Shown here piece by piece: positions 198 to 48,037 of a stretch of DNA of 64,000 nucleotides. A model generated the notes under the pieces. It saw only the letters and a list, made by a program, of their open reading frames with translations, had not been told where the DNA came from and searched no databases. Source of the DNA: an uncultured Actinomycetota bacterium (GTDB lineage Bacteria > Actinomycetota > Thermoleophilia > Gaiellales > F1-60-MAGs149); contig CAVYFW010000023.1 in NCBI GenBank assembly GCA_963767885.1, forward strand, positions 74,231 to 138,230. Direction: 5' to 3'. A program made the translations under genes and the position numbers. How positions within the stretch are numbered: position 1 is the first letter of the stretch; the number at the start of each line of letters is the position of its first letter.

Positions 198-255
198 GTG
201 CATTTGCACCGTCCCGCGGCGGCGCGACCTGGTCGGCCGAGAGGTGCAATTGCAC
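198..255. repeat. Paired-palindrome intergenic element, copy 1
   Basis: GTGCATTTGCAC (198-209) + 34-nt GC spacer + GTGCAATTGCAC (244-255). The spacer cgtcccgcggcggcgcgacctggtcggccgagag is homologous to the spacers of the copies at 20075-20131 and 28898-28964. Confidence 0.8.
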
Positions 256-2663: not shown

Positions 2664-4014
<1,351 letters not shown>

Positions 4015-4640: not shown

Positions 4641-5545
4641 GCGCGGGGCTGGCGGGCGCCGCGCGGCGCGAGGATCCGATGCCGTTCCCCGACCACCTCG
4701 TCGCCCTCGTCGACCGCGAGCTCGCCGTGCTGGCGGTGCCGGGCGGCGACGACGACCTCGCGCCGTTCGACCAGGCCCTGCGCTACCCGCTCGAGGCCGG
4801 CGGCAAGCGGCTGCGGCCCGTGCTGCTGCTGGCGACCGTCGAGGCGCTCGGCGGCGACGTCGAGGGCGCGCTGCCCACCGCCGTCGCGCTCGAGTGCGTG
4901 CACACGTTCTCGCTCGTGCACGACGACCTGCCGGCGCTCGACGACGACGACCTGCGGCGCGGCCGCGAGACCGTCCACCGCGTCTACGGCGAGGACGTCG
5001 CCGTGCTGGTGGGCGACGCGCTGCTGACGGTCGCGTTCCGCCTCGTCGCCGAGCGGCAGGGCGGCCCCGCGGAGCGCCGGCTGCGCGCCACCGCGACGCT
5101 GGCGCGCGCCGTCGACGGCATGATCCGCGGCCAGTACCTCGACGTCCGGCCGGTGGACGGCCTCGACGAGGCGGGCCTGCGCCGCCTCTGCTCGCTGAAG
5201 ACGGGCCAGTTGATCGAGGCCGGCGTCGGGCTCGCGCTCGATCTCGTGGACCCGGCCGACGAGGTCGCGGCCGCGTACCGCGCGCTCGCCGCCGAGGTCG
5301 GCCTGGGCTTCCAGATCGTCGACGACGTGCTCGACGCCACGGGCTCCGACGACGCGCTCGGCAAGCGGGCCGGCGCGGACGCGGCGGCGGGCAAGCGCAC
5401 GCACGTCACCGTCCTCGGCCTGCCGCGGGCGCGGGAGCTCGCGCGCGCCAGCGAGGAGCGTGCATTTGCACGTCTCGACGAGCTGCCCGGCCGCCCGCGC
5501 TCGCTCGCCGCGATCGTGGAGCGCGTCTACCGGCGGGACCGCTGA
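4637..5545 (+). CDS. ispA: Polyprenyl (farnesyl/geranylgeranyl) diphosphate synthase
   Basis: 302 aa. First Asp-rich motif LVHDDLPALDDDDLRRG, second FQIVDDVLD. GTG overlaps the xseB stop. Confidence 0.88.
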   Translation: MSAGLAGAARREDPMPFPDHLVALVDRELAVLAVPGGDDDLAPFDQALRYPLEAGGKRLRPVLLLATVEALGGDVEGALPTAVALECVHTFSLVHDDLPALDDDDLRRGRETVHRVYGEDVAVLVGDALLTVAFRLVAERQGGPAERRLRATATLARAVDGMIRGQYLDVRPVDGLDEAGLRRLCSLKTGQLIEAGVGLALDLVDPADEVAAAYRALAAEVGLGFQIVDDVLDATGSDDALGKRAGADAAAGKRTHVTVLGLPRARELARASEERAFARLDELPGRPRSLAAIVERVYRRDR

Positions 5546-8198: not shown

Positions 8199-8210
8199 GT
8201 GCAATTGCAC
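8199..8210. repeat. Single GTGCAATTGCAC palindrome upstream of the HesB-like gene
   Basis: Exact 12-mer. Its right flank gctcg..ggcc.acccgg resembles the right flank of the copy at 244-255. Confidence 0.75.
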
Positions 8211-8579: not shown

Positions 8580-8586
8580 CGACGCG

Positions 8587-8616
8587 CCTGCGGGCGTGCA
8601 ATTGCACGCCCGCAGG
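8587..8616. terminator. 30-bp perfect palindrome centred on GTGCAATTGCAC, immediately after the HesB-like gene (hairpin/terminator candidate)
   Basis: CCTGCGGGCGTGCAATTGCACGCCCGCAGG equals its own reverse complement. It starts 8 nt after the stop at 8579. Confidence 0.5.
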
Positions 8617-8623
8617 CGCCGCG

Positions 8624-10133: not shown

Positions 10134-10928
10134 GTGCCGCGGCTCGACCAGGTGCTCGTCGCGCGCGGGCTCGCCGAATCGCGGGCGCGCGCGCAGGCGT
10201 ACGTCATGGCAGGCCTGGTGCGCGTGGACGGGCGGCCGGCCGAGAAGGCCGGGATGCCCGTCGCCGAGGACGCCGCGATCGACCTGCGCGACCCGCCGCG
10301 GTTCGTCTCGCGCGGCGGCGACAAGCTCGCGACGATGCTCGACCGGCTGGGCTGGGACGTCGCCGGCGCCGAGGCGCTCGACGTCGGCGCGTCGACCGGC
10401 GGCTTCACCGACTGCCTGCTGCAGCGCGGCGCCGCACGGGTCATCGCGCTCGACGTCGGACGCGGGCAATTGCACGACCGCATCGCCGGCGACCCGCGCG
10501 TCACCCGCCTCGATCGCACGAACGCGCGCGAGCTCGAGCCTGCGCTCCTGCCGTTCATGCCGGACCTGCTGGTGGCCGACGTCTCCTTCATCTCCCTGCG
10601 GCTCGTGCTCGGCCCTGCGCTGGCGGTGCTGCGCCGTCCGTGGCGGGCGGTCGTGCTCGTGAAGCCGCAGTTCGAGGCAGGGCGCGACGAGGTGCGGCGC
10701 GGCGGTGTCGTGCACGACGACGAGGTGCGCGTGCGTGCGCTGGCCGACGTCGCCCGGTACGCTGCCAGTCTCGGCGCGGTGCTCGTGGACGCGTGCGACT
10801 CGCAGCATCCAGGCCCGGCCGGCAACCGCGAGTACCTGCTCGCCCTCGCCTCGCCCGACCACCCCGTCGCCCGTGCCCACCCCCATCTCGACGCAGACGC
10901 CCTCGCCCGTGCCGCCGTCGCGGACTGA
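10134..10928 (+). CDS. tlyA: TlyA-family rRNA (cytidine-2'-O)-methyltransferase
   Basis: 264 aa. S4-like N-terminus LDQVLVARGLAESRARAQAYVMAGLVRVDG and FtsJ-type SAM site ALDVGASTGGFTDCLL. Followed by nadK and recN as in mycobacteria. Confidence 0.88.
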   Translation: MPRLDQVLVARGLAESRARAQAYVMAGLVRVDGRPAEKAGMPVAEDAAIDLRDPPRFVSRGGDKLATMLDRLGWDVAGAEALDVGASTGGFTDCLLQRGAARVIALDVGRGQLHDRIAGDPRVTRLDRTNARELEPALLPFMPDLLVADVSFISLRLVLGPALAVLRRPWRAVVLVKPQFEAGRDEVRRGGVVHDDEVRVRALADVARYAASLGAVLVDACDSQHPGPAGNREYLLALASPDHPVARAHPHLDADALARAAVAD

Positions 10929-13061: not shown

Positions 13062-16449
<3,388 letters not shown>

Positions 16450-20072: not shown

Positions 20073-20131
20073 AGGTGCAATTGCACCTTCGCGGCGCCGC
20101 GCGACCGGTTCGCCCAGAGGTGCAATTGCAC
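20073..20131. repeat. Paired-palindrome intergenic element, copy 2
   Basis: AGGTGCAATTGCACCT (20073-20088) + 33-nt spacer cttcgcggcgccgcgcgaccggttcgcccagag + GTGCAATTGCAC (20120-20131). Lies between the convergent ald and P-II stops. Confidence 0.8.
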
Positions 20132-22325: not shown

Positions 22326-24188
22326 ATGGAACTACCGGCCGAGCTGCTTGCGCGCGTCCTCGCACGCGTGGACGACTACGTCTACGTCTGGGAGTACTGG
22401 CCCGACGGCTCGTCCGCGCCGCTGGTCGAGAACATCGGCTCGTTCGCGTTCTTCGGCGACGTCGAGGACGGCCGGCGGGCCGAGGACGTCTGGCGCGACA
22501 GCGTCCACCCGGACGACCGCGCCGCGTACGACGCCGTCACCGACGCGCAGGCCCGCGGCGAGGGCGGCGTCGCGGAGTACCGGCTGATGCGGCAGGACGG
22601 CACGCAGCTCGACGTCTTCGACCGCTGGCGCGGGCACGTCCGCGAGGACGGCGTCTGCATCGCCGAGGGGATCATCTCGGACGTCACGAAGCTCAAGGCC
22701 GCCGAGGCCGCACTGCGCGAGCAGCAGGAGCAGTTCCGGCTGCTCGCGACCTCGGCGCCGGTCGGCATCTACCTCGCCGATCTCGACGGCGGCCTGACCT
22801 TCGTGAACGAGCGCTGGCGCGAGATGTACGGCCTCGCCGGCGACACCGCGCTGGGCGACTCCTGGGCCGAGGTCGTGCACCCCGAGGACCGCGAGGCGTC
22901 GGTCGCCGCCTGGCTCGCGGCCGTGCGCGAGGGGCGCGACTTCGAGCACGAGTTCCGGCTCCTGCTCGGCGGCCTCACGCGCTGGGTGTCGTCGCGCGCC
23001 TGCCCGGTGCGCGACGCCGAGGGCCGCGTGACGGGCTACATCGGCACGGACTCCGACGTGACCGAGCGCCGGGCGGCCCAGACCGCGCTCGAGCGCCTGA
23101 CGCGCACCGACGCGCTGACCGGCCTCGCCAACCGCCGCCAGCTCTCGTCCTGGCTGCGCGACGGCCTGCGCCGCACGCCGACCGGCGTCGGGCTCGTGCT
23201 GCTGGACATCGACCACTTCAAGCGCATCAACGACACGCACGGGCACGGCATCGGCGACCGCGTCCTCGTCGAGGCCGGACGCCGGCTGAAGGCGGCGCGC
23301 AGGGACGCGTTCGTGGCTCGCTGGGGCGGGGAGGAGTTCGCCGTCGTGCTGCCGGCGACGGGCGACGAGGACGACCTGCTGCAGATCGCGGAGGCGATGC
23401 GGGCGACGATCGGGGCCGACGACATCGCGGGCCTGCACGTCACCGCATCGGCCGGCGCCGCGCGGACGGGCGACGGCATCGCGAGCTCGACCGAGCTCAT
23501 CGAATCCGCCGATCGCGCGCTCTACGCCGCCAAGCGCCGCGGCCGCGACCAGACCCGGCTCGCGTCGCGCCTGACCCCGCAGGACCTGATCCCGGAGGAG
23601 CCCGAGGCCGTGCGCGTGGCGCAGGGCCTGGCGCTCGCCGCGTCGGTGCGCGAGGGGGTCGCGGAGGTCGGCGCGAGCCGCGTCGCCGACCTGGCCAGCG
23701 AGGTGGCGCGGCGGCTCGGCCTGCCCGAGCACGTGCAATTGCGCTGCCGGCTGGGCGGCCTGCTGCGCGACGTCGGCAAGGTCGCACTGCCCGATCGCGT
23801 CCTGTTCGAGCGCGGCCCGCTCGACGACGAGGCCTGGGCCATCATGCGGACCCACAGCGCGATCGGCGAGCGCATCGTCCTGCAGAACCCGCTGCTGCGC
23901 GACGCGGCGCCGGCCGTGCGCCATCACCACGAGCGGTGGGACGGCAGCGGCTACCCGGACGGTCTGGCGGGCGACGCCATCCCCATCGAGGCGCGCGTCG
24001 TCGCGGCCTGCGACGCGTACGGCGCCATGACCAGCGACCGGCCGTGGCGCCGGGGGCTGGAGCACGAGGACGCGATCGCGGAGCTTCGCCGGGTTGCGGG
24101 CTCCCAGCTCGAGCCCGACGTCGCAGCCGCGGTCTGCGACGCCGTGGACGAGGGCCGGCAGTCGTCGCCCCTGCGCGGCGCCGCGTAG
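22326..24188 (+). CDS. PAS-PAS-GGDEF-HD-GYP signalling protein (diguanylate cyclase / c-di-GMP phosphodiesterase)
   Basis: 620 aa from ATG 22326. Two PAS-like segments, GGDEF domain with RWGGEEF, HD-GYP domain with HHERWDGSGYPDG. Confidence 0.88.
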   Translation: MELPAELLARVLARVDDYVYVWEYWPDGSSAPLVENIGSFAFFGDVEDGRRAEDVWRDSVHPDDRAAYDAVTDAQARGEGGVAEYRLMRQDGTQLDVFDRWRGHVREDGVCIAEGIISDVTKLKAAEAALREQQEQFRLLATSAPVGIYLADLDGGLTFVNERWREMYGLAGDTALGDSWAEVVHPEDREASVAAWLAAVREGRDFEHEFRLLLGGLTRWVSSRACPVRDAEGRVTGYIGTDSDVTERRAAQTALERLTRTDALTGLANRRQLSSWLRDGLRRTPTGVGLVLLDIDHFKRINDTHGHGIGDRVLVEAGRRLKAARRDAFVARWGGEEFAVVLPATGDEDDLLQIAEAMRATIGADDIAGLHVTASAGAARTGDGIASSTELIESADRALYAAKRRGRDQTRLASRLTPQDLIPEEPEAVRVAQGLALAASVREGVAEVGASRVADLASEVARRLGLPEHVQLRCRLGGLLRDVGKVALPDRVLFERGPLDDEAWAIMRTHSAIGERIVLQNPLLRDAAPAVRHHHERWDGSGYPDGLAGDAIPIEARVVAACDAYGAMTSDRPWRRGLEHEDAIAELRRVAGSQLEPDVAAAVCDAVDEGRQSSPLRGAA

Positions 24189-28012: not shown

Positions 28013-28894
28013 ATGGAGGCGCAGATCGACGACTTCCTGACGGCGCTGCAGCTGGAGCGGGGGGCCTCGCGGCACACGGTCGCGGCGTACCGGCGCGACC
28101 TGCAGGCCCTGGCGGCGTTCATCGACGATGCGCACCTCGATCCCGATCGCCTGCGCGGCCCCGACCTGGAGCCGTATGCCGCGTCCCTGCGCGCCCAGGG
28201 CCTGGCGCCGAGCACCGTGCGCCGCCGGCTCGCGGCCGCGCGCTCGTTCCTGCGCCACCGCCTGCGCATCGGCGCGCGGGTGGAGGGCGTGCGCGACCTG
28301 CCGCTGCCGCGCACGCGCCGGGCCGTGCCGCGCGTGCTCGACGTCGAGCAGGTGCTCGCGCTGCTGGGGCAGCCGGACGGCACGCCGCGCGGGCTCCGCG
28401 ACCGGCTCGCCCTGGAGCTCCTGTACGGCGCGGGGCTGCGCGTGTCGGAGCTCGTCGGGCTGCGCCCCGGGGACGTCGACCGCGACCTCGCCGTCGTGCG
28501 CTGCGTGGGCAAGGGCGACCGCGAGCGGATCGTGCCGACGGGGCGCGAGGCCGTCGCCGCGCTCGACCGCTACCTGGCCCGCGGGCGCCCGTTCCTCGGC
28601 CGCACGCAGGCGCGCGACGCGCTCGTGCTCAACGCCCGCGGGCGCCGGCTCACGCGCCAGGGCGTCTTCGACCTCGTGCGGCGCCACGCCGCGGCCGCGG
28701 GCCTGCCGGCGTGGGTGACGCCGCACTCGCTACGCCACGCGTTCGCGACGCACCTCGTGGAGGGCGGCGCCGACCTGCGGACGGTGCAGGAGCTGCTCGG
28801 CCACCACCGCATCGCGACGACCGAGATCTACACCCACCTCGCGGGCACGCACCTGCGCGAGACGTTCCTGGGCGCGCACCCGCGCGCGCGCTGA
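28013..28894 (+). CDS. xerD: Tyrosine recombinase XerD/XerC
   Basis: [30 protein letters not shown]..., catalytic [11 protein letters not shown] and TEIYTHL. The ORF also opens at GTG 27962, but ATG 28013 fits the family N-terminus. Confidence 0.88.
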
Positions 28895-28897
28895 GGC

Positions 28898-28964
28898 GTG
28901 CAATTGCACCTCCGCGGCGGCGCGCTGTCGGCGTGCCGGCGCGCGCCGAGACGTGCACTTGCAC
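28898..28964. repeat. Paired-palindrome intergenic element, copy 3
   Basis: GTGCAATTGCAC (28898-28909) + 43-nt spacer starting ctccgcggcggcgcg and ending gccgagac + GTGCACTTGCAC (28953-28964). Fills the gap between the xerD stop (28894) and the convergent MFS stop (28980). Confidence 0.8.
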
Positions 28965-28979
28965 GTGCGGGGCGCGCCC

Positions 28980-30421
28980 TCAGGTCGCCGCGAGCCGCTC
29001 CGGGATGCGGCTCGCCGCCACTGCCGTGACCGCCGCGAGCGTCGCCTCGATGGCGAGCGCCGCGACCGTTGCGGTGCGCCAGCCCTGGTCGACCGCGAGC
29101 GCGGCGAAGATCGAGCCGATGACGGCGGCGCCCGTGGCCAGCGAGAGCTGGATGGTCGTCATCAGCACGCCGCTCGCCGCACCGGCGAGCGCCGGCGGGA
29201 TCGCGGACAGGACGACGTTCACGAGCCGCACGATGACGAGGCCCTGACCGACGCCGGTCACCGCCATCGGCACGGCGAGCCAGACGGGGCCGAGCTGGTC
29301 GTAGGCCAGGAGCGCCGTCAGCGCCTGCATGACGAGGCCGGCCGACATGATCAGCGCCGCCGAGCACGATCGAGCGGCGGCCGCCGAGGCGGTGGGCCAG
29401 CGGCGCGGCGGCGAGCGACACGCCGAGGAACGCGAGCGCCAGCGGCAGCATCGTCAGGCCCGAGGCGATCGGCGACAGGCCGCGGCCGCCCTGCAGCGTG
29501 AGGGCCGTGGTCAGGAAGAAGCCGCCGGCCGCCGTGAACACCGCCAGCCCGGCCAGCAGGCCGCGGCGCGTCGCCTCGTAGCGCAGCAGGGAGAGCGGCA
29601 GGAGCGGTGCCCGGCCCTCCCGCTCGCGCCGCGACTGCGTCCAGACGAACGCCGCGGCGGCGATCGGCGCCAGCGCCAGCGCCACGACGCACCAGAGCGG
29701 CCAGCCCTCCTCGCGGCCGAGGGCCAGCGGCACCAGGAGCAGGGAGACCGAGGCGGCGAGGAGCACGGTGCCGGGCACGTCGATGCGGGAGGCCGCCGGG
29801 GGGCGGGAGTCCGGCACGACCTTCATCGCCGCGATCATCGCCGGCGATGCCGAGCGGCACGTTGACGAGGAAGATCGGCCGCCAGCCGAGGCCGAGCAGG
29901 TCGAGCTCCACGATCGCGCCGCCGATCAGCTGGCCGGCGACGGTCGCCGCGCCGAGCATGGCGCCGTAGAGGCCCAGGGCGCGCTCGCGGGCGCTGCCGT
30001 GGAACGACGCCTGGATGACGGCCAGCACCTGCGGCACCATCAGGCCGGCGGCGACGCCCTGCAGCACGCGCGCCAGGATGAGCGCCGTCATGGTCGGCGC
30101 CGCGCCGCAGAGGGCGGAGGTCACGGTGAACGCGGCCATGCCGAGCACGAACAGGCGGCGGCGCCCGTACAGGTCGCCGAGGCGGCCGCCGGCGACGAGC
30201 GTGCAGGCGTAGCCGACGCCGTAGCCGGCGACGACCAGCTCGAGGCCGGACGCGCTCGCGCCCAGCGACGTGCCGATCGACGGCAGCGCGACGTTGACGA
30301 CGAAGAAGTCGAGGACGGCGAGGAACGCGCCGAGCAGCAGCACCGGCAGCGCGCGGACCTGGGTCGCATGGGCTGCCAGCGCACCGGTCGGGACGGTGGG
30401 GGCGACGGACATGGGCCGCAC
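28980..30421 (-). pseudogene. MFS transporter, DHA2 (EmrB/QacA, 14-TMS) type, frame interrupted twice
   Basis: N-terminal part ...LDFFVVNVALPSIG...GRLGDLYGRRR...; middle ...PLWCVVALALAPIAAAAF...; C-terminal ...GQGLVIVRLVNVVLSAIP... These lie in three successive frames, with shifts ~29840 and ~29350. Confidence 0.75.
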
Positions 30422-30515
30422 GGTCGCCGATCTCGTAGCCAGGTACTAGAGAGGTATCGATCCTGGTACTGGAAGCACCTGGCACCAGCATCGAGAACGC
30501 GGCATCCTGTGACCC

Positions 30516-31398
30516 ATGGCCGTCATCGACAGCGTCGACGAGCGCCGCCGCGAGCTCGGCGACGTTCCTCCGCTCGACCCGCGAGCGCCTGACGCCCGAC
30601 GCGCTCGGCCTCGCCGCGACAGGCCGCCGGCGCACCCCCGGGCTGCGCCGCGAGGAGGTGGCGCAGGACGCGGGCGTCGGGCTCACGTGGTACACGTGGC
30701 TCGAGCAGGGCCGCAGCATCAACGCGTCGCCGCAGGTGCTGGCGGCGCTCGCCCGCACGCTGCGCCTCGACCGCTTCGAGCGCGCGCACCTGTTCCGGCT
30801 CGCCGCCTTGGCGGACCCCGACGAGCCGCCCGAGAGCGAGTGCGTGCCCGCCAGCGTCCGGGCGACGCTCGCGCAGCTGGAGCCGTACCCCGCGTACGTC
30901 GTCACGGCGCGCTACGACCTGCTGGCCTGGAACCGCGCCTACGCCGCGCTCATGGGCGACGTCGAGGCCCTGCCGCGCGACCGGCGCAACGTGCTCCTGC
31001 TGCTGTTCCTGGAGCCGGCGTGGCGGGAGCTGCTGCTCGACTGGCGCCGCGACGTCGGCCACGTGGTCGCGCAGTTCCGCGCGGCGATGGCGGCGCACGC
31101 GCGCGAGCCGGCGTGGCTCGACCTGCTGGAGGAGCTCGAGGACGGCTCGGAGCACTTCCGCGAGCTCTGGTCGCGGCACGAGGTCGCCGGGCCGACGACG
31201 AAGCGCAAGCGCTACCTGCACCCGGTGGCGGCGCGGCTGGAGCTCGAGAGCACCAGCTACTGGCTGGCCGACCAGCCCGGCGTGCGCATGCTCGTCGCCG
31301 TGCCGGTGGACGAGGAGTCGCACGGCGGGCTCGACCGCCTCATGGACGCGCCGCCCTGGCGGCCGTGGCGCGAGACCGCGCTCGAGCTCGGCGCCTGA
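30516..31398 (+). pseudogene. XRE-family HTH transcriptional regulator with C-terminal effector domain, frame interrupted once near the N-terminus
   Basis: MAVIDSVDERRRELGD then +1 shift (~30563) into FLRSTRERLTPDALGL...RRTPGLRREEVAQDAGVGLTWYTWLEQGR. Divergent from the MFS gene. Confidence 0.7.
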
Positions 31399-31415
31399 GC
31401 CCTCGCGCCGCCCCG

Positions 31416-31429: not shown

Positions 31430-32704
31430 ATGGCGGCCCCGCGCGTGTTCCGCGACGAGCGCAAGCTGACGTACCTCAACGTCGTGGCCGCCGAGCGGCC
31501 GCTGGCTGGCCCGGTCTCGGCGGAGACCCACGCCGCCGCGCGCCGCTACCGGCTGTCGCGCCTGCGCGAGCAATTGGACGCGTTCGACTGCGCGGCGATC
31601 CTGCTCTACGACCCCGTCAACATCCGCTACGCCCTGGACGTCTCGAACATGGCGCTGTGGATGGCGCACAACCCGACGAACTACGCGCTCATCGTCGCCG
31701 GCGGCCCGGCCATCTACTTCGGCTACGCGGGCTCCGAGCACCTCGCCGCGGGCCTGGAGGGGGTCGACGAGGTGCGGCGCTCGACGGCGTACATGTTCCA
31801 GGACGTGCCGGGACGCGTGGAGGAGACGGCGCGGGCCTGGGCCGCCGAGATCGCCGAGCTCGTGCGCGCCGCGGGCGGTGCGGGCGCGCGGCTCGCGATC
31901 GACGTCTGCGACCCGGCCGGGCTGCAGGCGCTGCAGGCGCTGGACGTGCAATTGCTCGAGGGCCGCGAGCTGACCGAGAAGGCGCGGATGCTCAAGTCCG
32001 CGGACGAGCTCGAGCTGATGCGCTGGACGGTCAAGGTCTGCGACGCCGCGATCCAGCGCATGTACGACGTCTCGGCCGAGCCGGGGCGGACGGAGCTGGA
32101 GATCTGGGCCGAGCTGCACCACGAGAACATCCGCAACGGCGGGGAGTGGATCGAGACGCGTCTCCTGACCTCGGGGCCGCGCACCAACCCGTGGTTCCAG
32201 GAGGCGTCGCAGCGCATCACGGAGACCGGCGACCTGCTGGCGTTCGACACCGACATGATCGGCCCGTACGGCTACTGCGCCGACCTGTCGCGCTCGTGGA
32301 CGGTCGGACACGTGCCGCCGACGCCGCACCAGCGCGACCTGTACCTGCACGCCCGCGAGCAGGTGGAGCACAACATGGCGCTCCTGCGCGACGGGCTCAC
32401 GCTGCGAGAGTTCAACGAGCGGCAGTGGCAGGTGCCCGAGCGGTTCCAGGCCCGCGAGTACGGCTGGGCCTTCCACGGCGTCGGCATGGCGGACGAGTAC
32501 CCGTGCTCGCCGACGCCCTCGACGTTCGCGGGCTCGGCCTACGACCGGGCAGACGTCCGCCTGGAGGCCGGCATGGTCGTGTGCCTGGAGAGCCTCGTCG
32601 GCGAGGAGCAGCGGGGCGAGTGCGTCAAGCTCGAGGCGCAGGTCGCGATCACGCGGGACGGCATCGAGCGGCTCGATGCCTTTCCCTGGGAGGACTGGGG
32701 CTAG
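31430..32704 (+). CDS. M24-family metallopeptidase-fold enzyme (Xaa-Pro dipeptidase/creatinase-like)
   Basis: 424 aa. Creatinase-like N-domain plus pita-bread domain (...DLLAFDTDMIGPYGYCADLSR...FHGVGMADEYP...CLESLVGEE...KLEAQV). The ORF opens at TTG 31421. Confidence 0.8.
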   Translation: MAAPRVFRDERKLTYLNVVAAERPLAGPVSAETHAAARRYRLSRLREQLDAFDCAAILLYDPVNIRYALDVSNMALWMAHNPTNYALIVAGGPAIYFGYAGSEHLAAGLEGVDEVRRSTAYMFQDVPGRVEETARAWAAEIAELVRAAGGAGARLAIDVCDPAGLQALQALDVQLLEGRELTEKARMLKSADELELMRWTVKVCDAAIQRMYDVSAEPGRTELEIWAELHHENIRNGGEWIETRLLTSGPRTNPWFQEASQRITETGDLLAFDTDMIGPYGYCADLSRSWTVGHVPPTPHQRDLYLHAREQVEHNMALLRDGLTLREFNERQWQVPERFQAREYGWAFHGVGMADEYPCSPTPSTFAGSAYDRADVRLEAGMVVCLESLVGEEQRGECVKLEAQVAITRDGIERLDAFPWEDWG

Positions 32705-32808: not shown

Positions 32809-33186
32809 CTACGCGTCGAACGCGCCGACCGACAGGACGTTGCCGGCCGGGTCGCGGAACCACGCGATCGTCGGGCCGTGGCCGCGCATGATGCCCTTCG
32901 CGTCCGTGCCCATGTCCGGGTACTGCTCGAAGGCGACGCCCTTCGCGGTCAGGGCGTCGACGGCGGCGTCCACGTCGTCGGCCGGGAAGTTGAGGATCGT
33001 GAACGTCGCCGGCGCGTGGTCGGGCTTCGGGTAGACCAGCACGCGGGCGCCGGTGCCGAGCGTGAGCTGCAGCAACCCGCCCGCGAGATCGTCCACTTGC
33101 ACGCCCAGGGTGTCGCCGTAGAACGCGCGAGCGCGGTCGATGTCGTCCACGGCGAACCCGGAGAAGGCCTTCGCGTCCCTGAACAT
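32809..33186 (-). CDS. VOC/glyoxalase-family protein
   Basis: 125 aa, [29 protein letters not shown]... RBS AAGGAG before the ATG. Confidence 0.75.
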
Positions 33187-33301: not shown

Positions 33302-34666
33302 ATGGCCGAGGACCGAGACGTCGTCATCGTCGGCGCCGGCATCGCCGGGCTCGTCGCCGCGCACCGCCTGCAGGACCGTGCACCGCTGGTGCTGGAGGCC
33401 GGCGATCGCGTCGGCGGGCGCATGTGGTCGCAGCGGCGCGGCGACCTGGCGCTCAGCGTCGGCGCGCACATGTTCCCGCCGCCGGACTCCGTGATCGGAG
33501 GCCTCGTCGCCGAGCACGGGCTCGAGGTCATGCCGATCACGGGCTCCATGCTGAACATCCACTACGGCGGGCGGCTGGTGCGGGACACACGGCCGGAGCT
33601 CATGCCCTTCCGCCTGCCGATGTCGCTGCGCGGTCGCATCTCGTTCGCGCGCGCCGGGCTGAAGGTCAAGCGCGACGGCGACCGCTACATGAAGCTCATC
33701 CAGCACCGGCCGGGCGACACCGAGGCCGCGATCCGCATGCGCGGGCTGCAGCACGGCGGCGACCGGACGTTCGCCGAGTTCCTCGGGCCGCTGCACCCGG
33801 AGGCCGACGCGATCTTCCGCGCCCTCGCCAACCGCTCGATCGCCGAGCCGGAGGAGATCTCGCAGGGCGCCATGGCGGCGCTGTTCGGCCACGTCTGGGA
33901 CAGCGGCGACCTCGGGCGCAACATGCGCGGCGGCTCGGGCCAGCTGCCGGAGGCGCTCGGCGAGTCGCTGGGCGACGTGATCCGCCTGCGCTGTGGGGTC
34001 GAGAGCGTGCAATTGGACGGATCCGGCGTGCGCGTCCGCTACGCCGGCGAGGGCGGAAGCGGCGAGGTGCGCGCCCGCACCGCGATCGTCGCCGCGCCCG
34101 GTCCGCTGGTGCCGGGGCTGCTCGGCGACATCCCGTCCGACGTCGCGTCTGCCCTCGCCCTGATCCGCATGGGCCCGATGGTCGTCGTCAGCCTGCTGAC
34201 CGACGAGACCGAGCCCATGCCGTGGGATGGCCTCTACTCGGTGCTGACGCCGGACAAGCGCTTCAACATGATCTTCAACCACGCCGACTTCGCCCACGGC
34301 GCCGGGCTGCCGCGCACGGGCAGCGTGCTCATGGTCTACGGCGGGGGCGACCGCGGGCGCGCCTACCTGGAGCGCACGGACGACGAGCTGCGCGACGACT
34401 TCCTGGCCGACCTCTACACCGTCTTCCCACAGGTGCGCGGCCGCATCGTCGAGACGATGGTCAAGCGCTGGCAGTACGCCGGGCCGTTCGCGGCGCCCGG
34501 TCGCTGGCGGGCGCAGGCGACCCTGGAGCGCGGCATCGACGACCGCATCTTCTTCGCCGGCGACTGGGTCAGCGACTTCGTCTCGATGGAGACCGCCGCG
34601 CTGACGGCCGTGGACGCCGCGGCGAACGTGCGGCGCGTGCTGGGCGAGGTCGGCGCGCCCGTATGA
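33302..34666 (+). CDS. FAD-dependent amine oxidase / protoporphyrinogen-oxidase-like oxidoreductase
   Basis: 454 aa. Dinucleotide fold [18 protein letters not shown]...GGR, C-terminal FFAGDW. Confidence 0.8.
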
Positions 34667-35439: not shown

Positions 35440-36622
35440 GTGGTGCCGCGAGCGTGTGTCATCGTCCTCGACGCCGTCGGGGTCGGCGAGCTGCCGGACG
35501 CCGCGGCCTACGGCGACGCCGGGTCGTCGACGTTGGCCCACGTGGCCGAGGCGGTCGGCGGGCTCGAGCTGCCGCACCTGCAGGAGCTCGGGCTCGGCAA
35601 CATCATGCCGCTGCTGGGCTGCCCGCCCGCGGACGCGCCGCCGTCGATGGTCGGGCGCCTGACGACCCGCTCGGCCGGCAAGGACACCACCATCGGCCAC
35701 TGGGAGCTGATGGGCATCGTCACGCCGGAGCCCATGCCGACGTATCCCGACGGCTTCCCGCCCGACGTGGTCGACGCGTTCGCGGAGGCCACGGGGCGCG
35801 GCGTGATCGGCAACGTGCCGGCCTCGGGCACCGAGATCATCCAGCGGCTCGGCGACGAGCACGTGCGGACGGGCAAGTGGATCCTCTACACGTCGGCCGA
35901 CTCCGTCTTCCAGATCGCCGCGCACGAGGACGTCGTGCCGCTCGACGAGCTCTACGCCGCCTGCCGCATCGCGCGCGCGCAGCTGCACCGGGCCACACGC
36001 CGTCGGGCGCGTCATCGCGCGGCCCTTCACCGGCACGAGCGGCGCCTACGCGCGGACCGCCAACCGCCACGACTTCTCGCTCGCGCCGCCGCGGCCGAAC
36101 CACCTCGCGCGGCTCCGCGCGGCCGGCCACCAGGTGCACGGGGTGGGCAAGATCTCGGACGTGTTCGCCGGCCAGGACGTCGACACGTCGACGCCGACCT
36201 CGTCGAACGCCGAGGGCATCGCGCAGATCCTGCGCCTGCTCGGGGAGGTCGACGACGGGCTGATCTTCGCCAACCTCGTCGAGACCGACATGATCTACGG
36301 GCACCGCAACGACCCCGTCGGCTTCCACGGCAGCCTGCGCGAGTTCGATCGCGCCGTGCCCGACCTGCGGGCCGCCCTGCGACCCGACGACCTGCTGGTG
36401 CTGTGCTCCGACCACGGGTGCGACCCGACGACGCCGTCGACCGACCACTCGCGCGAGTACGCGCTGCTGGTGGCGCACACGCCCGGCGGGGTCGCACACC
36501 CGGGCGGCCGCCACGACGGCGACCTGGCGGACGTCGGCGCGACCGTCCGCACCTGGCTCGGCGACCGCGGCGCGGCGGCCGACGGCGAGGTCCCCGGCGC
36601 GCCGATCCCGCTCGAGGGCTGA
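35440..36622 (+). pseudogene. deoB: Phosphopentomutase, frame interrupted once
   Basis: [15 protein letters not shown]...[13 protein letters not shown]... then +1 shift (~35985) into ...GRVIARPF...[11 protein letters not shown]...DMIYGHRND...CSDHGCDPT. Confidence 0.8.
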
Positions 36623-36623
36623 C

Positions 36624-37933
<1,310 letters not shown>

Positions 37934-37969: not shown

Positions 37970-39325
37970 GTGGGATCCCGCCGCTGGCTGCTCGCGGTCG
38001 GCCTCGCGGCGCTGCTCGCGGGCTGCGGCGACTCCGGCGGCGGCGAGACGTCCGAGGAGCCCGAGCCCGCGCCGGACGCCGCAGTCGAGACGGACACCGA
38101 CGCGACGCCCGAGGACAGCGCGGAGGCCGCGCCGTCCACGAGCGCCGAGGCCCCGCCGGCCGCGCCCGGAACGTTCAATTGGACGCTCGTCGACACGGCG
38201 CCGCTCTACGCCGACGACAGCCACGCGCTCGGCGCCGCGTCGAACGGCGACGAGGTCCTCGGGGTCGGCTACCGCACGGGCGGGGGCGCGGAGGAGATCT
38301 CCCTCGCCTGGCGCACCCGCGACGGCCGGACGTGGGAGCGCAGCGAGCTCCCGCAGCCCGCCGGCGCCGGGCTCGGCGGCACGAACGCGCTCGCCGCCGC
38401 GGCGTGGTCGGGCGGCTGGGTGGTCGCCGGCGTGCTGCGGGGCGACGACCCGACGCTCGCGGTGTGGGTCTCGCCGGACGGCGAGACGTGGGCGGCCGTC
38501 GAGTCGCCGGCGTTCGCGGCTCCGGAGGGCCGGCTGGGCGGCGTCACGCCAAGTGGCGTCGCCGCGTCCGCCGACGCCATCGTCGTCGGCGGCAGCGCGG
38601 AGACCATCGACGACGGCGCGGCCGTCTGGCGCTCGACCGACGGGCGCGCCTGGGAGCGCGTGGACGACGACGACCTCCGCGTCACCTTCATGCGCGACGT
38701 CGCGTCGGACGGCGCGGGCTTCGTCGGCGTCGGCACCGCGATCCGGCCGGACCTGCGCAACGAGGGGGTCGTCTGGCGGTCGGAGGACGGCACGGACTGG
38801 CGCCGCGTCGCGTCGCCGGCGCTCGGCGCGGGCGGCGAGGACGTGTCGCTGGAGGCCGTGGCGTACGGCGACGGGCGCTGGTGGATCGCCGGACACCAGC
38901 TCATCGGCGACCCGGCCGACGCGTCGTCGCAGAGGGCCGCGCTGGCGATGTGGTCGTCGGCCGACGGCGAGACGTGGGAGCGCGAGCCGCAGGACGCCAT
39001 GCCGTACGACCTCGACGTGGAGGTCGACGACGTCGCAGCGCTGCCGGGCGGCGCGGTGGTCGTGATCGGCACGTCCACCGACCCCTCGCTGCCGCACCCG
39101 GCGGCCGTGAGCTGGACGCGTGCGGCGGACGGCACCTGGCGGCAGCAGTCGGGCGGCGCGCTCCAGGGGAACGGCAGCGTCACCGGCAACGGCGTCGCCG
39201 CGCTGGGCGACGTCCCCGTCGCGCTCGGGACGACCGTGATCCTGGACGAGCCCGGCGAGGAGGACGACGGCGGAGTGCTGAACTACGACGCCGTCGCGTT
39301 CGTGGGCAGCCCGCTCACCCGTTGA
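37970..39325 (+). CDS. Lipoprotein with six BNR/Asp-box repeats (six-bladed beta-propeller-like)
   Basis: Lipobox LLAGC. Repeats WRTRDGRTWE, WVSPDGETWA, WRSTDGRAWE, WRSEDGTDWR, WSSADGETWE, WTRAADGTWR. Confidence 0.75.
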   Translation: MGSRRWLLAVGLAALLAGCGDSGGGETSEEPEPAPDAAVETDTDATPEDSAEAAPSTSAEAPPAAPGTFNWTLVDTAPLYADDSHALGAASNGDEVLGVGYRTGGGAEEISLAWRTRDGRTWERSELPQPAGAGLGGTNALAAAAWSGGWVVAGVLRGDDPTLAVWVSPDGETWAAVESPAFAAPEGRLGGVTPSGVAASADAIVVGGSAETIDDGAAVWRSTDGRAWERVDDDDLRVTFMRDVASDGAGFVGVGTAIRPDLRNEGVVWRSEDGTDWRRVASPALGAGGEDVSLEAVAYGDGRWWIAGHQLIGDPADASSQRAALAMWSSADGETWEREPQDAMPYDLDVEVDDVAALPGGAVVVIGTSTDPSLPHPAAVSWTRAADGTWRQQSGGALQGNGSVTGNGVAALGDVPVALGTTVILDEPGEEDDGGVLNYDAVAFVGSPLTR

Positions 39326-41729: not shown

Positions 41730-42146
41730 GCGTGCAGCCCGCGCCGGCCTCCGAGCGAGGGCACTGGCTCGTGGCGTTCCTCGTGCGCGCGGCGCTCAAC
41801 GTGGCCGCGATCTGGGCGGCCGACGAGCTGCTCAGCGGCGTGCAATCGAACGGCGAGCTGTCGACCTACGTGATCGCGGGCCTCGCGCTCGCCGCCATCA
41901 ACTCGCTGGTGCGGCCGGTCGTGGTGTTCCTGGCGATCCCGCTGATCGTGATCACGCTCGGCATCGCGTACCTGCTGGTCAGCGTGCTGATGATCGGCAT
42001 CGTCTCGTGGCTCGTGCCCGACTTCTCGGTCGACGGCTTCTGGAGCGCGGCCGGCGCGGCGATCATCGTGTTCCTCGTCAACTGGGGCTTCTCGGCCGTC
42101 CTGGGCCTGGACGCACGGCCGGCGCCGCGAGCAGGGCGCCCGCTAG
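41726..42146 (+). pseudogene. DUF360 / phage-holin-4_2-type small membrane protein; the 3' end needs a +1 shift
   Basis: ...NVAAIWAADELL...INSLVRPVVVFLAIPLIVITLGIAYLL... The in-frame ORF runs to 42430, antisense to the next gene, with falling GC3. Frame +1 from ~42100 has 100% GC3 and stops at TAG 42144-42146. Confidence 0.6.
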
Positions 42147-42149
42147 CGG

Positions 42150-43556
42150 TCAGCCGCAGCCCGGTCCGGCGAGGCGCGCGATCGGCTGCGGCAGGCGCGT
42201 GCCGGCGCCGACCCGCGGTCGGGTCGCGCTCGCCGTGCGCAGGCGCGCGATCGCGGTCCGCACGGCCACCCGCGGGCCGGTCAGGACGGCGACGACGCGC
42301 CCGGTCGGCACCTGCGTCCAGCCGCCGAAGCGGTAGGCGTCGACGCCGCGCACGCGGAAGCGCACGGCGTGCCGGGTGCGCGGACGGGCGCAGCCGAGGC
42401 GGGGTCGCCGGGGGTAGATCGCGATGGTGAGGCCCCGCGGGCACGTCGCGCGGTCGATCGAGCAGTCGTAGACGAAGGTGAGGGCCTGCGCGGTGCGGGT
42501 GACGCCGGTGAGCGCGTAGCCGGGCATCCGCGCGCCGGGCCAGAGCAGCGGGAACGCGCGGAACGCCCGCACGCCGGCGAGGGACAGCGCGCTGCTCGAG
42601 GCGTCGAAGCTCGGGCCCTCGCGGAGGCTCGCGGGGCCGACGCCGGCGGTGCAATTGGACGGTCCGGGCACGCTGCCGGGGCGCCAGGCGGGGCCGAGCT
42701 CGGACACGAGCGAGCGCGTGATCTGCGTCGGGCACGAGCCGTCGCGCCCGAGCGTCACCAGCTCGACCTGGTCGCGCCGCACGTCGAGGCGCTCGACGAC
42801 CAGCCGCGTCCCGTCCGCCGACCATGACGGCGCGCCCTGCACCAGCCGGCCGCTCGTGATGGGATGGAGGTCGTTGCCGTCCGCGGTGACGAGCATGACG
42901 GTGCCCTGCAGGCCGTTGGCGTGGGCGAACGCGATGGTGCCGCCGTCGGGCGAGACGGCGGGGTCGCCGTCGGCGCCGGATGCGGTCAGGCGGCGCTGTC
43001 CGGATCCGTCCAATTGCACCGTCGCGACGTTCGTCGGCCCGGGCAGGGCGTCCCTGCCGACCTCGAACTCGGTGAAGGCGAGGCGGTCGCCCGTGGGAAA
43101 CCAGCTCGGGGCGAGCGCGAAGTGCTGGTGCGGCACGGGCTGAAGGCCGGAGCCGTCCGGCGCGACGAGCCACAGCCGCGGCTCGAACCGCTCCGGGCCG
43201 CCCGTCGTGACGCGGACGACGGCGAGGCGCTGCCCGTCGGGCGACCACGCCGGCTGGCTGGCGCCGCGCAGCACGCGGTGGCGCCCGCTGCCGGCGGCGT
43301 TCGCGATCCAGAGCCAGCCGCCCTGCTCGTACGCGAGCCGCTGCCCGTCCGGCGACCACGCGGGATCGCGGGCGGATGCGTAGCTCGCCACCACGGGCGG
43401 CACGATCGTGCGCAGCGCCCGCCCGCTGCCGTCGACGAGGTCGATGCCGCCCGCGCGCGCGACCGCGATCTCGCCGCCGGCCGCAGCGGCGGACGCGGGG
43501 GCGAGCAGCGACGCGAGCACGGCCATGCCGAGCACGACGGCCAGGGGGCGACCCAC
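42150..43556 (-). CDS. Secreted TolB-like beta-propeller protein with C-terminal domain of unknown function
   Basis: GTG 43556 gives signal peptide VGRPLAVVLGMAVLASLLAPASAAAAG. PD40-type repeats PAWSPDGQRLA (x2), PAVSPDGGTIAF, PSWSADGTRLV. Confidence 0.75.
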   Translation of the reverse strand: MGRPLAVVLGMAVLASLLAPASAAAAGGEIAVARAGGIDLVDGSGRALRTIVPPVVASYASARDPAWSPDGQRLAYEQGGWLWIANAAGSGRHRVLRGASQPAWSPDGQRLAVVRVTTGGPERFEPRLWLVAPDGSGLQPVPHQHFALAPSWFPTGDRLAFTEFEVGRDALPGPTNVATVQLDGSGQRRLTASGADGDPAVSPDGGTIAFAHANGLQGTVMLVTADGNDLHPITSGRLVQGAPSWSADGTRLVVERLDVRRDQVELVTLGRDGSCPTQITRSLVSELGPAWRPGSVPGPSNCTAGVGPASLREGPSFDASSSALSLAGVRAFRAFPLLWPGARMPGYALTGVTRTAQALTFVYDCSIDRATCPRGLTIAIYPRRPRLGCARPRTRHAVRFRVRGVDAYRFGGWTQVPTGRVVAVLTGPRVAVRTAIARLRTASATRPRVGAGTRLPQPIARLAGPGCG

Positions 43557-46467: not shown

Positions 46468-48037
46468 GTGCCGACGGCGCGCTGCTGGTGGCGGCGCGGG
46501 GCATCTCGAAGCACTACGGCCCGGTCCGGGCGCTCGACGACGTCTCGTTCGAGCTGCGCCGCGGCGAGGTCATGGCCCTGCTCGGCGAGAACGGCGCCGG
46601 CAAGTCGACGCTGGTGAAGATCCTCGTCGGGCCTCGTCGATGCCGGACGACGGCACCATCGAGATCGACGGCCAGCCCGCCGATCTCTCCAGCGCCCGCC
46701 GCTCCCGGGCGGCCGGCATCGCGGTGGTGCAGCAGGAGCTGAGCCTCGTGCCGACCCTCACGGCCGGCGAGAACGTCTTCCTCGGCGGGCGCTTCGGCGG
46801 CCTCTGGACGGGCCGGCGGGTGGCCGAGCGGGCGCGGCCCGTACCTGGCGCAGGTCGGGCTCGGCGACCTGAACCCGCGCACCTACGTCGTCGTCGCTCT
46901 CGGTGGCCGAGCGCCAGCTCGTCGAGATCGCGCGGCTGCTGGCCCGCGACGCGCGCATCCTGATCCTCGACGAGCCGACGGCGGCGCTCTCCGACGTCGA
47001 GATCGCGCGCGTGAACCGCGTCGTCCGCTCGCTGGCCGACGCGGGCAAGGGCGTGATCTACGTGACGCACCGCCTGGGCGAGGTCTTCGACATCGGCGAC
47101 CGGGCGACGGTCTTCCGCAACGGCAAGAGCGGCGAGCCGCCGTCCGCGTCGCCGAGCTGACCATCGACAGCCTCGTCGAGCGCATGCTCGGACGGCCGCT
47201 GGAGGCGATGTTCCCGCCGCGCGCGGAGACGTTCGGCGACCTGCGCCTCGAGGTCGAGGGCCTCGAGGCGCCCGGGCTCGTGGAGCCCGTCAACCTCACG
47301 CGTGCGGCAGGGCGAGATCCTCGGCCTCGCCGGACAGATCGGCTCCGGTGCGCCGACGCTGCTGCGCGCGGTCGCCGGCATCGCGCTCACGGCCACGGGC
47401 ACCGTGCGCGTGGACGGCGAGGACGTGCCGAGCCACTCGCTGCAGCGCGCGATCGCCCGCGGGATCGCCTACTGCTCCGACGACCGCAAGCGCGACGGCG
47501 TCTTCCAGATCAAGACCGTGACCCAGAACCTGACGGCGCCGGCGCTCGATCGCGTGAGCCCGGGCGGCATCATCTCCCGCTCCAAGGAGCGCGCCCTGGC
47601 CCGGCAGCTCGCGTCCTCGTTCGCCATCGACCAGAGCCGCCTCGGGTTCTACGCCCGCACGCTCAGCGGCGGCAACCAGCAGAAGGTCGCTCTCGGCAAG
47701 TGGCTCGGCGTGGAGCCGCAAGGTCCTGCTGGTGGAGGAGCCGACGCGCGGCGTCGACGTCGGCGCCCGCGCCGAGATCTACAGCCACCTCCGGCGCCTC
47801 GCGTCGGAGGGCATGGCCGTCGTGTTCGCGTCGACCGACCTCCCGGAGGTGCTCGGCCTGGCGGACACCGTGGCGACCTTCTACCGGGGGCGCCTCGTCC
47901 GCGTCGCGCCCGCGGCCGACCTCAGCCAGGCGGAGATGATGCGCGACGTGACGCACGAGCGGGCGGAGGCCGCGCCCGCGGCGGGCGCGCCGTCCGCGAC
48001 CGCAGTGCTGCCCCCGTTCTCCGGCGGCAGCGCATGA
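46464..48037 (+). pseudogene. Sugar ABC transporter ATP-binding protein (tandem ATPase domains, RbsA/MglA-like), frame interrupted about eight times
   Basis: [87 protein letters not shown] all lie in frames advancing 0,1,2,0,1,2,0,1,2. Confidence 0.8.

Follow-up and report, generated by a model that had tools for sequence, protein, structure and literature searches.

A young palindromic word centred on CAATTG, repeated within and between genes in a narrow clade of Gaiellales

Lineage-specific palindromes of 12–16 bp that are bound by dimeric proteins, with many of their sites in genes and thereby subject to selection as DNA, include the SBS of SlmA (GTGAGTACTCAC), the NBS of Noc, the matS of MatP and the parS of ParB. 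The highly iterated palindrome HIP1 (GCGATCGC) of cyanobacteria is conserved both inside open reading frames (ORFs) and between them and is tied to chromosome structure (PMC5861425), and proposals for its function span chromosome structure, methylation and transformation (PMC5861425, PMC4390886). Uptake sequences, such as the uptake signal sequences (USS) of Pasteurellaceae and the DNA uptake sequences (DUS) of Neisseriaceae, build up in coding sequence and are missing from genes that lack homologues in relatives (PMC2817400). The origin of such hyper-abundant words and the purpose of HIP1 have been open questions for decades, partly owing to the age and saturation of the known examples. Here we describe a word that behaves in a similar way, the 12-bp palindrome GTGCAATTGCAC with CAATTG at its centre, in a 64-kb stretch (the window) of a Gaiellales/Thermoleophilia metagenome-assembled genome (MAG). 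We found no description of GTGCAATTGCAC, or of CAATTG enrichment in high-GC bacteria, in the literature searched.

The window is 75% GC, and about 96% GC at third codon positions. CAATTG occurs in it 15 times, compared with 0.92 expected from dinucleotide-preserving shuffles (largest shuffle count, 4), and all copies lie between positions 247 and 43011. An earlier note on this DNA, the coordinates and sequences of which proved correct throughout, had counted the same 15 copies, 13 of them flanked by GTG or CAC; its estimate of about 3 expected copies was too high. CAATTG is the sole outlier among the 64 palindromic hexamers (16-fold, with the runner-up at 2.3-fold) and the most over-represented of all hexamers under the dinucleotide model, and, in line with the note, its frequency within these 64 kb is not that expected from composition. 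A perfect palindrome in at least tenfold excess over composition, as in HIP-type words, is seen both for the hexamer and for the 12-mer that embeds it: GTGCAATTGCAC has six perfect copies and, with up to two mismatches, 25 copies (0.85 expected). The density is about one word per 4 kb, or about 0.27 per kb in the clade described below; without enrichment, CAATTG would occur about once per 70 kb.

Conservation extends well past the hexamer. Position 6 of the half-site is C in 30 of 30 cases, which gives the invariant frame GNNCAATTGNNC. Among the same 30, C stands at position 4 in 23, A at position 5 in 25 and G at position 7 in 21. A larger set of 19 unique sites has C at position 6 in 38 of 38 half-sites. 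Five of these 38 also have an outer TCCGG arm 7–11 nt from the centre (0.37 expected, p = 3e-5), so that the extended consensus is roughly CCGGAC-GTGCAATTGCAC-GTCCGG. Isolated half-sites are not enriched (GTGCAA outside CAATTG, 12 versus 8.6 expected), nor is GGATCC a second enriched word in the window (13 versus 24.6 expected).

We found close relatives of the window through the TolB-like protein and RecN, and a further 32 loci of uncultured Gaiellales/Thermoleophilia MAGs (429 kb) through the amine oxidase, at 71% amino-acid identity or less. Three close relatives carry the word: L153 (about 91% nucleotide identity, syntenic) has 5 CAATTG copies against 0.41 expected, L155 (about 89%) has 7 against 0.31 and L156 (about 92.5%) has 8 against 0.27. 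These copies occupy the same sites as in the window, with lineage-specific gains in addition, and the extended consensus recurs as GTGCAATTGCACGTCCGG at L155:17000 and L156:17073 and as CAATTGCACGTCCGG at L153:10888. The clade as a whole has 35 CAATTG copies in 129 kb (about 1.9 expected). Two outgroups, L154 (about 85% identity) and L274 (about 80%), have none (0.21 and 0.30 expected, respectively). Of the ENA assemblies concerned, ERZ25039586, ERZ25039588 and ERZ25039510 bear the motif, and ERZ25039565 and ERZ25039476 are free of it. Across the 32 distant loci CAATTG is at expectation (19 versus 22.6); the perfect 12-mer is absent from these 429 kb, and a single GTGCANNTGCAC was found when any centre was allowed. 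No synteny with the distant relatives was seen, and the amine-oxidase site is the only one comparable there. The earlier note had pointed to distant orthologues with the same nucleotides as the observation that would speak for ancestral coding sequence; none carries them, and the word is clade-specific. Its presence in the close clade and absence from the outgroups and distant loci mark it as a narrow-clade word of recent origin, which appeared after the clade split from relatives at about 80–85% nucleotide identity. An exact look-up of the window proteins gave no match on record.

Six of the CAATTG copies in the window lie between genes and nine lie within genes, so that the word, like HIP-type words, is found both within and between ORFs. 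Seven of the nine in-gene copies are read as CAA-TTG, and the other two, at 38176 and 42652, as xxC-AAT-TGx. This frame bias is unremarkable by itself, because the middle frame calls for A/T at two third positions and Asn-Cys/Trp pairs are uncommon. The codons are another matter: CAA accounts for 15 of 411 Gln codons and TTG for 18 of 1909 Leu codons in the window, and under independent codon use the expected number of CAA-TTG among the 45 Gln-Leu pairs is 0.004–0.015. The tally gives 8 such pairs, next to 23 CAG-CTC and 13 CAG-CTG. It was made from approximate coding segments, each extended by 60 nt, and one of the 8 pairs may sit just beyond a gene edge, since 7 in-frame sites were located. 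It is the excess over codon usage that shows a cause at the level of DNA. The earlier note had read most in-gene copies as Gln-Leu in rare codons, in accC, a tlyA-like gene, a GGDEF/HD-GYP gene, an M24 peptidase gene, an amine oxidase gene and a PD40/TolB-like gene; the reading, the rarity of the codons and all of the gene assignments hold. From this it had proposed selection or insertion at the DNA level rather than anything at the protein level, and the rare codons uphold the choice of DNA over protein, whereas insertion, including the miniature insertion that it listed among candidate roles, is contradicted by the comparison with orthologues.

Collinearity with orthologues holds for amine oxidase, AccC and the TolB-like gene, none of which is longer or shorter at the sites. 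Thirty amine-oxidase orthologues align without gaps and have V-[A/R/S]-L-D-G-A-G there (for example, GTG GCG CTC GAC GGC GCC GGC); the site reads GTCCAGCCGGACGGCGCCGG in L154 and GTGCAATTGGACGGTGCGGG in L153, the distant orthologues have V-x-L-D-G-A-G and no indel separates any of them. Three-way and four-way alignments show clustered, directional substitutions at the motif sites, and many of the motif-creating steps are transversions or amino-acid changes. At 2783 in accC, L274 has GTC GAG CTC and protein relatives have V-R-L, a change from E or R to Q; among the AccC relatives listed, V-Q-L is limited to the window and a single JGI protein of the same 90%-identity cluster, and the remainder, equal in length to the window AccC, have V-R-L except for one V-R-M and one V-A-L. 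The site at 5460 went from CGC GCC ACG GCC CTG (L274) to CGT GCA TTT GCA CGT, replacing T with F; that at 7106 from CAC CGC CGC TCG to CAC GTG CAA TCG, replacing R-R with V-Q; and that at 23733 from GTG CGC GTG CGC (L274) to its present state, replacing R-V with Q-L. The tlyA-like site at 10464 can be followed step by step, from CAGCTG in L274 through CAGTTG in L155 to CAATTG in L156 and the window. In the TolB-like gene, GTG CAG GTG GAC GGC AGC in L154 became GTG CAA TTG GAC GGA TCC at 43019, and the 19-mer at 42649 is identical in L153 and absent from L154. The partial copy at 41840 acquired three synonymous changes in the window lineage, all of them towards the motif and two of them C>G.

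Single lineages continue to acquire copies. At L155:2524, GTC AAC GGC became GTC AAT TGC (Gly to Cys), and at L153:16810, GAC CAG CTC GCC became GAG CAA TTG GCC (D-Q-L to E-Q-L). We conclude that the in-gene copies were very probably made in place by point substitution and that they belong to a real DNA-level word. Coding sequence permits only the best approximation to it, usually Val-Gln-Leu written GTG CAA TTG, and the cost is paid in rare codons and amino-acid replacements. Coding copies that arise by substitution, favoured reading frames and a raised frequency of the encoded peptide, all familiar from uptake sequences, are found here as well. Between positions 32000 and 53600, 61% of the 1786 substitutions that separate the window from L153 are C<->G transversions, because synonymous change is confined to G/C third positions in a genome of such extreme GC content; this share is a useful baseline against which to judge the A/T-creating changes at motif sites.

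As the earlier note had observed, the 20-mer GTGCAATTGGACGGATCCGG is identical at 34007–34026 (+) and 43019–43000 (−), and a copy lacking one A lies at 42649–42667. The identity had been taken as a sign of a copied element, a view that the history of the two sites does not bear out. In L153 the TolB-like copy is already the 20-mer, whereas the amine-oxidase copy reads ...GGACGGTGCGGG; the change from GGTGCG to GGATCC came later, in the window lineage, and created the TCCGG arm of the extended consensus. Both genes encode the ancestral L-D-G-x-G at the site, and D-G-S-G recurs in PD40 repeats. The identity is best read as two permissive sites having converged independently on the core and the TCCGG arm. 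As this arm is itself enriched, the 8 additional nucleotides of the 20-mer are not separate from the motif.

Once formed, the sites are kept. Within the clade, 167 of 180 motif columns are identical, compared with 687 of 900 in the 30-nt flanks, so that the clade-specific motif is conserved beyond its background, as HIP-type sites are between related genomes. Against the outgroup L154 the motif shows no such excess (34/48 versus 183/240 in the flanks). Intergenic copies remain intact while their flanks gather indels and substitutions, as at 8199 and, in L156, at 20075/20120.

All six perfect 12-mers of the window are intergenic (Table 1). They include those of three double-palindrome elements, A, B and C, which are homologous, about 70 bp long and share a related spacer (CCTyCGCGGCGsCGCG...GGTTCGsCC.AGAG) between palindromes 45–55 bp apart. 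The elements fold as one long hairpin, and two of the three lie between convergent gene ends. Element B, which folds in this way, retains both 12-mers in L156 although the spacer has diverged there. The copy at 8199 is conserved in L155 and L156 despite diverging flanks, and the palindrome at 8584–8619 forms a hairpin of −43 kcal/mol (z = −8). No T-run follows the hairpins on direct reading of the window, and a search of Rfam matched no family. In L156, one arm of the 8584–8619 palindrome has a C>T change after which pairing survives only as G-U, on the sense strand, which hints that this copy may be used as a hairpin at the RNA level. L154 lacks element C and the 2.5 kb that follow it; the xerD-like and M24 peptidase genes lie about 100 bp apart there. 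This extra segment of about 2.5 kb (28890–31404) contains fragments of an MFS transporter and a MmyB-like regulator, with element C exactly at its left edge.

Four independent pairs of motifs are spaced 355–400 bp apart: 8202/8599, 31571/31949 and 42652/43011 in the window, and 2524/2879 in L155, in which the lineage-specific gain at 2524 sits 355 bp from the older site. No pairs occur at 60–340 bp or at 401–600 bp. The within-window probability of this spacing is about 0.002 before correction for the choice of bin, and the pairing may reflect cooperative binding or looping.

CAATTG is absent from the last third of the window, 43.1–64 kb (p about 0.003 for uniformly placed sites, by our own calculation on a single region). 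The part of this region that overlaps L153, 43.1–53.5 kb, is motif-free there too. What comes after the TolB-like gene in L154 is a set of core genes (peptidase S58, glutaredoxin, recO and glyQS) and not the block seen in the window, and we regard the 43.1–64-kb block as probably accessory DNA. Part of it, made up of ABC-transporter and SDR genes, has a lower GC content (0.72–0.73).

Table 1. Copies of the word, elements that contain it and related sites in the window
Feature	Position	Strand	Context
Double-palindrome element A: GTGCATTTGCAC, 34-nt spacer, GTGCAATTGCAC	198..255	.	Homologous to B and C
Perfect GTGCAATTGCAC	244..255	.	Intergenic, upstream of efp; second palindrome of element A
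GTG CAA TTG GCC (V-Q-L-A)	2783..2794	+	accC
Variant GTGCATTTGCAC (R-A-F-A-R)	5460..5471	+	Polyprenyl synthetase gene
Perfect 12-mer	8199..8210	.	Intergenic, about 100 nt upstream of HesB/IscA-like gene
36-bp perfect palindrome centred on 12-mer 8596–8607	8584..8619	.	Between HesB-like stop and aroE start
GGG CAA TTG CAC	10464..10475	+	tlyA-like gene
Control GTGCAGCTGCAC (V-Q-L-H)	15703..15714	+	pyrG; CAGCTG in window, L155, L156 and L274
Double-palindrome element B: two perfect 12-mers 45 bp apart	20075..20131	.	ald / amtB-glnK, convergent
GTG CAA TTG CGC	23733..23744	+	PAS-GGDEF-HD-GYP gene
Double-palindrome element C: GTGCAATTGCAC, 43-nt spacer, GTGCACTTGCAC	28898..28964	.	Directly after xerD-like stop
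GAG CAA TTG GAC	31568..31579	+	M24 peptidase gene; L154 has GAG CAG CTC GAG
GTG CAA TTG CTC	31946..31957	+	M24 peptidase gene, 378 bp from copy at 31568
Partial copy GTG CAA GTG GAC	33091..33102	-	Glyoxalase gene; L153 has GTG CAG GTG GAC
20-mer GTGCAATTGGACGGATCCGG (V-Q-L-D-G-S-G)	34007..34026	+	Amine oxidase gene
GTTCAATTGGAC (F-N-W, out of frame)	38173..38184	+	BNR-like lipoprotein gene; kept in L153
Partial copy GTG CAA TCG AAC	41840..41851	+	L153 has GTC CAG TCC AAC
19-mer GTGCAATTGGACGGTCCGG	42649..42667	+	TolB-like gene; minus-strand reading ..P-S-N-C-T..
Second 20-mer copy (T-V-Q-L-D-G-S-G)	43000..43019	-	TolB-like gene; identical in L153

Beyond these genomes, a scan of viral contigs for CGTGCAATTGCACG returned 117 single matches and no multi-copy contig, and a metagenome scan for paired palindromes gave, among the matches listed, mostly unrelated repeats. 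One JGI contig (Ga0170475_116180645, L064; 69% GC) has a tandem array of GTGCAA[T/G]TGCACGGAACGnnnn with a 22-bp period at 2290–2420, downstream of a secreted dehydrogenase-like gene; the array uses the same 12-mer and is iteron-like, on an unrelated contig. Two other contigs (L135 and L145; 61% GC) carry the same 12-mer inside inverted-repeat elements.

What kind of system could produce such a word? Perfect two-fold symmetry over 12–24 bp, with outer arms, suggests a dimeric DNA-binding protein, and we lean towards the view that the word is a protein recognition site. The word would then be a chromosome-wide binding site of a dimeric protein that binds double-stranded DNA, of the type that organizes the nucleoid or chromosome; binding sites would arise by mutation and then be kept by selection, possibly acting in pairs, 355–400 bp or about 45 bp apart. 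A nucleoid-organizing role in particular, the mechanism that we favour, is less likely than not. Taken as a whole, a young HIP1- or USS-like genome-wide word, proposed to be the target of a dimeric protein, is the best explanation that we can offer, and we hold it tentatively, at a little short of even confidence. Several observations weigh against it. Neither the 64-kb window nor the loci read from the relatives yielded a cognate protein, methyltransferase or competence gene. The evidence comes from a 64-kb part of the source genome and roughly 21 kb from each relative (about 150 kb of clade DNA in all), and the motif-bearing assemblies are without exception long-read MAGs in which 1-nt indel errors are frequent. 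The density is roughly ten times that of SBS, NBS and matS, and lower than that of HIP1 and USS. The offset of the TCCGG arm varies by 0–2 nt, a poor fit to a rigid protein footprint, and the 355–400-bp spacing is a post hoc observation on few pairs. The pyrG site, two synonymous transitions from a perfect copy, is unconverted in every clade member, which shows that conversion is not deterministic, or else that this gene does not tolerate rare codons.

The main rival is a bias in uptake or recombination of the USS/DUS kind, in which the machinery prefers DNA with the motif and better matches are transferred and fixed by molecular drive, with no benefit at the individual site. We consider it a serious though less likely contender: it shares nearly all of the evolutionary signatures, and not the palindromic form or the codon preference. 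Copies in coding and intergenic DNA, the frame bias towards a common dipeptide, an origin by point mutation partly at poorly conserved residues (the x in V-x-L), continuing gains in single lineages and intergenic pairs between convergent genes, like USS/DUS terminator pairs, would all follow from it. So would the motif-free, probably accessory block at 43.1–64 kb, of which the first 10 kb are motif-free in L153 as well and which is not beside the TolB-like gene in L154. The pattern agrees with that described for uptake sequences (PMC2817400), and HIP1 itself has been linked to transformation (bioRxiv 10.1101/2024.09.10.611283). However, the uptake sequences that are known lack symmetry, whereas the present word is perfectly palindromic and its isolated half-sites are not enriched; USS tend towards preferred codons, and this word is written in the rarest. 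Among the loci read we saw no competence genes, and we know of no natural competence or sequence-specific uptake described in Thermoleophilia. Methylation or repair is an unlikely cause. CAATTG, the MunI/MfeI specificity, would in that case be the target of an orphan methyltransferase, maintained by a need for a minimum density of sites or regenerated by repair bias, as discussed for HIP1. The palindromic core and the abrupt, clade-specific origin, as after the acquisition of a gene, fit this, and at 75% GC a system that needs sites found only once per 70 kb would select new ones everywhere; HIP1, moreover, contains the targets of two orphan methyltransferases (PMC4390886). Yet conservation spans 12–24 bp, well past a hexamer target, short-patch repair bias cannot make CAA-TTG from CGC-GTG or GAG-CTC, the 64-kb window and the roughly 21-kb loci of the relatives have no methyltransferase gene, and restriction sites are normally avoided, whereas CAATTG is 16-fold enriched.

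That the in-gene copies are ends or remnants of a miniature inverted-repeat or other insert, with the 20-mer identity due to transposition or ectopic gene conversion, is improbable. The 19/20-nt inverted repeats at 42649 and 43019 do resemble terminal inverted repeats, and a mobile-looking intergenic family with the same palindrome exists, but no in-gene site differs in length from its orthologues, and the 371 bp between the repeats are ordinary in-frame PD40 coding DNA, collinear with L154, which has this interval and neither copy. Insertion, including that of a miniature inverted-repeat element, is ruled out at the in-gene sites by collinear orthologues without extra DNA. A short conversion tract could have made the three changes in six nucleotides (GGTGCG to GGATCC) that render the amine-oxidase copy identical to the TolB-like copy; homologous conversion would have had 14 nt of identity to work with, however, which is very short, and as the same three changes build the independently enriched TCCGG arm, convergence suffices. 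An ordinary transcription-factor operator or terminator hairpin, with the in-gene copies left to chance or to a protein-level Val-Gln-Leu, is very unlikely, even though none of the six perfect copies is in a gene, some are upstream of efp, the HesB-like gene and aroE, the 8584–8619 palindrome and the double elements fold strongly and the L156 substitution preserves pairing as G-U on the sense strand. The copies are not confined to promoters: 9 of 15 are in genes, against a codon-usage expectation of about 0.01, and convergent gene ends flank two of the three double elements. Two in-gene copies are in another frame and share no common peptide, orthologous proteins elsewhere have other residues, and the hairpins have neither a T-run nor an Rfam match. 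For the in-gene copies, the operator or terminator is refuted as a complete explanation; as a secondary function, it may still apply to the intergenic ones. Least probable of all is a sequencing artefact, in which a base modification on a true CAGCTG leads the nanopore basecaller and polisher to substitute A for G and T for C; CAATTG would then be present in the assembly and not in the DNA. Such C2T and G2A errors at modified motifs are documented for R10.4.1 assemblies (PMC11610603), and these are noisy long-read assemblies (84 of the 110 indels between the window and L153 are of 1 nt, and changes of frame break up many genes). In frame, CAA-TTG is synonymous with CAG-CTG, the split of the Gln-Leu pairs given above fits the idea, and CAGCTG is at 1.0-fold where its sister palindromes are at about 1.9-fold, a gap that the 15 CAATTG copies would close (1.87-fold). 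Against this, GTGCAGCTGCAC in pyrG, in the same 14-nt context as motif copies (C-GTGCA..TGCAC-G), stays CAGCTG in four independent assemblies, whereas other sites are CAATTG in every clade assembly, and at shared sites no two assemblies disagree between CAATTG and CAGCTG. Sites derive from ancestors other than CAGCTG, among them CAACGG (L155:2524), CGCGTG and GAGCTC; the variants GTGCATTTGCAC, GTGCACTTGCAC and CGATTGCAC are one step from AATT and two or three from AGCT; and the partial copies GTGCAAGTGGAC and GTGCAATCGAAC have CAA without any CAGCTG. Even an AGCT centre would leave the 12-mer hugely enriched (6 perfect intergenic copies against <0.1, by our own base-composition estimate). A methylation artefact is thus rejected as unlikely, mainly on account of the unconverted pyrG site and the non-CAGCTG ancestral states, and a general conversion of GTGCAG to GTGCAA is likewise rejected, as GTGCAG is not depleted (62 versus 40 expected) and GTGCAA outside CAATTG is near expectation.

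The assemblies bear other marks of their origin. Genes for phosphopentomutase, pyrimidine-nucleoside phosphorylase, an ABC transporter/permease and several SDRs are split across frames in the window (35440–37933, 46903–49020 and elsewhere); the pyrimidine-nucleoside phosphorylase is intact in L153 (435 amino acids), and the 1-nt indels between the window and L153 rarely fall in homopolymers. This points to long-read consensus errors rather than pseudogenes. As a practical warning, CARYTG-type signals in long-read MAGs need to be separated from methylation-induced basecalling errors.

If the word is the target of a dimeric protein, the clade may have acquired a DNA-recognition activity within roughly 10–15% nucleotide divergence, serving uptake, recombination or the nucleoid, and its 12–24-bp palindromic target may be in the course of being driven into hundreds of sites across the genome, at the expense of codon bias and even of residues that are conserved (for example, Arg to Gln in AccC), while intermediates can still be seen in sister genomes. 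In this full form the proposal is speculative and, on balance, unlikely. Were such a young, genome-writing system real, it would be the first iterated word of the HIP/USS type in Actinomycetota and the first with a birth that can be reconstructed step by step. The intermediates and lineage-specific gains make ancestral and derived states directly readable. Contrasting the gene content of motif-bearing and motif-free sisters could reveal the responsible protein. The cost to proteins, in rare codons and amino-acid replacements, becomes measurable, and selection can be separated from molecular drive.

Among described systems, the three intergenic double elements, homologous, about 70 bp long and folding as one long hairpin, resemble REP/REPIN doublets, a likeness that applies to these elements alone. 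REPs are essentially intergenic and spread by insertion, whereas the in-gene copies here arose by substitution with no change in length, and no RAYT (IS200/IS605-like) transposase is among the Pfam matches for the window and loci. The palindromic architecture of the SBS, NBS, matS and parS sites is present in the word, for which the binder is putative, and SBS has the same GTG....CAC 12-bp architecture as GTGCAATTGCAC; those systems have tens of sites per chromosome, often in one region, and the word is about ten times denser. With USS and DUS, which are 9–12-mers, it shares a lineage-specific sequence in coding and non-coding DNA, an origin by point mutation, a frame bias towards tolerated peptides and pairs downstream of genes; for the depletion that USS and DUS show in genes without homologues in relatives (PMC2817400), the motif-free block at 43.1–64 kb is a single candidate region. 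These sequences differ in being asymmetric and oriented, at about one per kb and mostly in preferred codons, whereas the word is a perfect palindrome in the rarest codons. To our knowledge, no uptake specificity has been described in this phylum. Like HIP1, the word is short, perfectly palindromic and in excess by one to two orders of magnitude, lies within and between ORFs and is conserved between related genomes beyond its surroundings. It is not HIP1 proper, having another sequence, GTGCAATTGCAC, in Gaiellales/Thermoleophilia, a different phylum. It is also longer (a 12-bp core with symmetry of up to about 24 bp) and sparser (about one per 4 kb, compared with one per 0.3–1 kb), and its AT-rich centre in a 75% GC genome forces rare codons. 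HIP1 is ancient and phylum-wide and has cognate methyltransferases, whereas this word is of recent origin, absent at about 80–85% identity, and none is known for GTGCAATTGCAC. The word resembles HIP1 and uptake sequences in behaviour and is a member of neither by sequence, by lineage or, in the case of USS, by asymmetry; it is set apart by its youth, by an AT-rich core in a 75% GC genome and by a visible cost to proteins.

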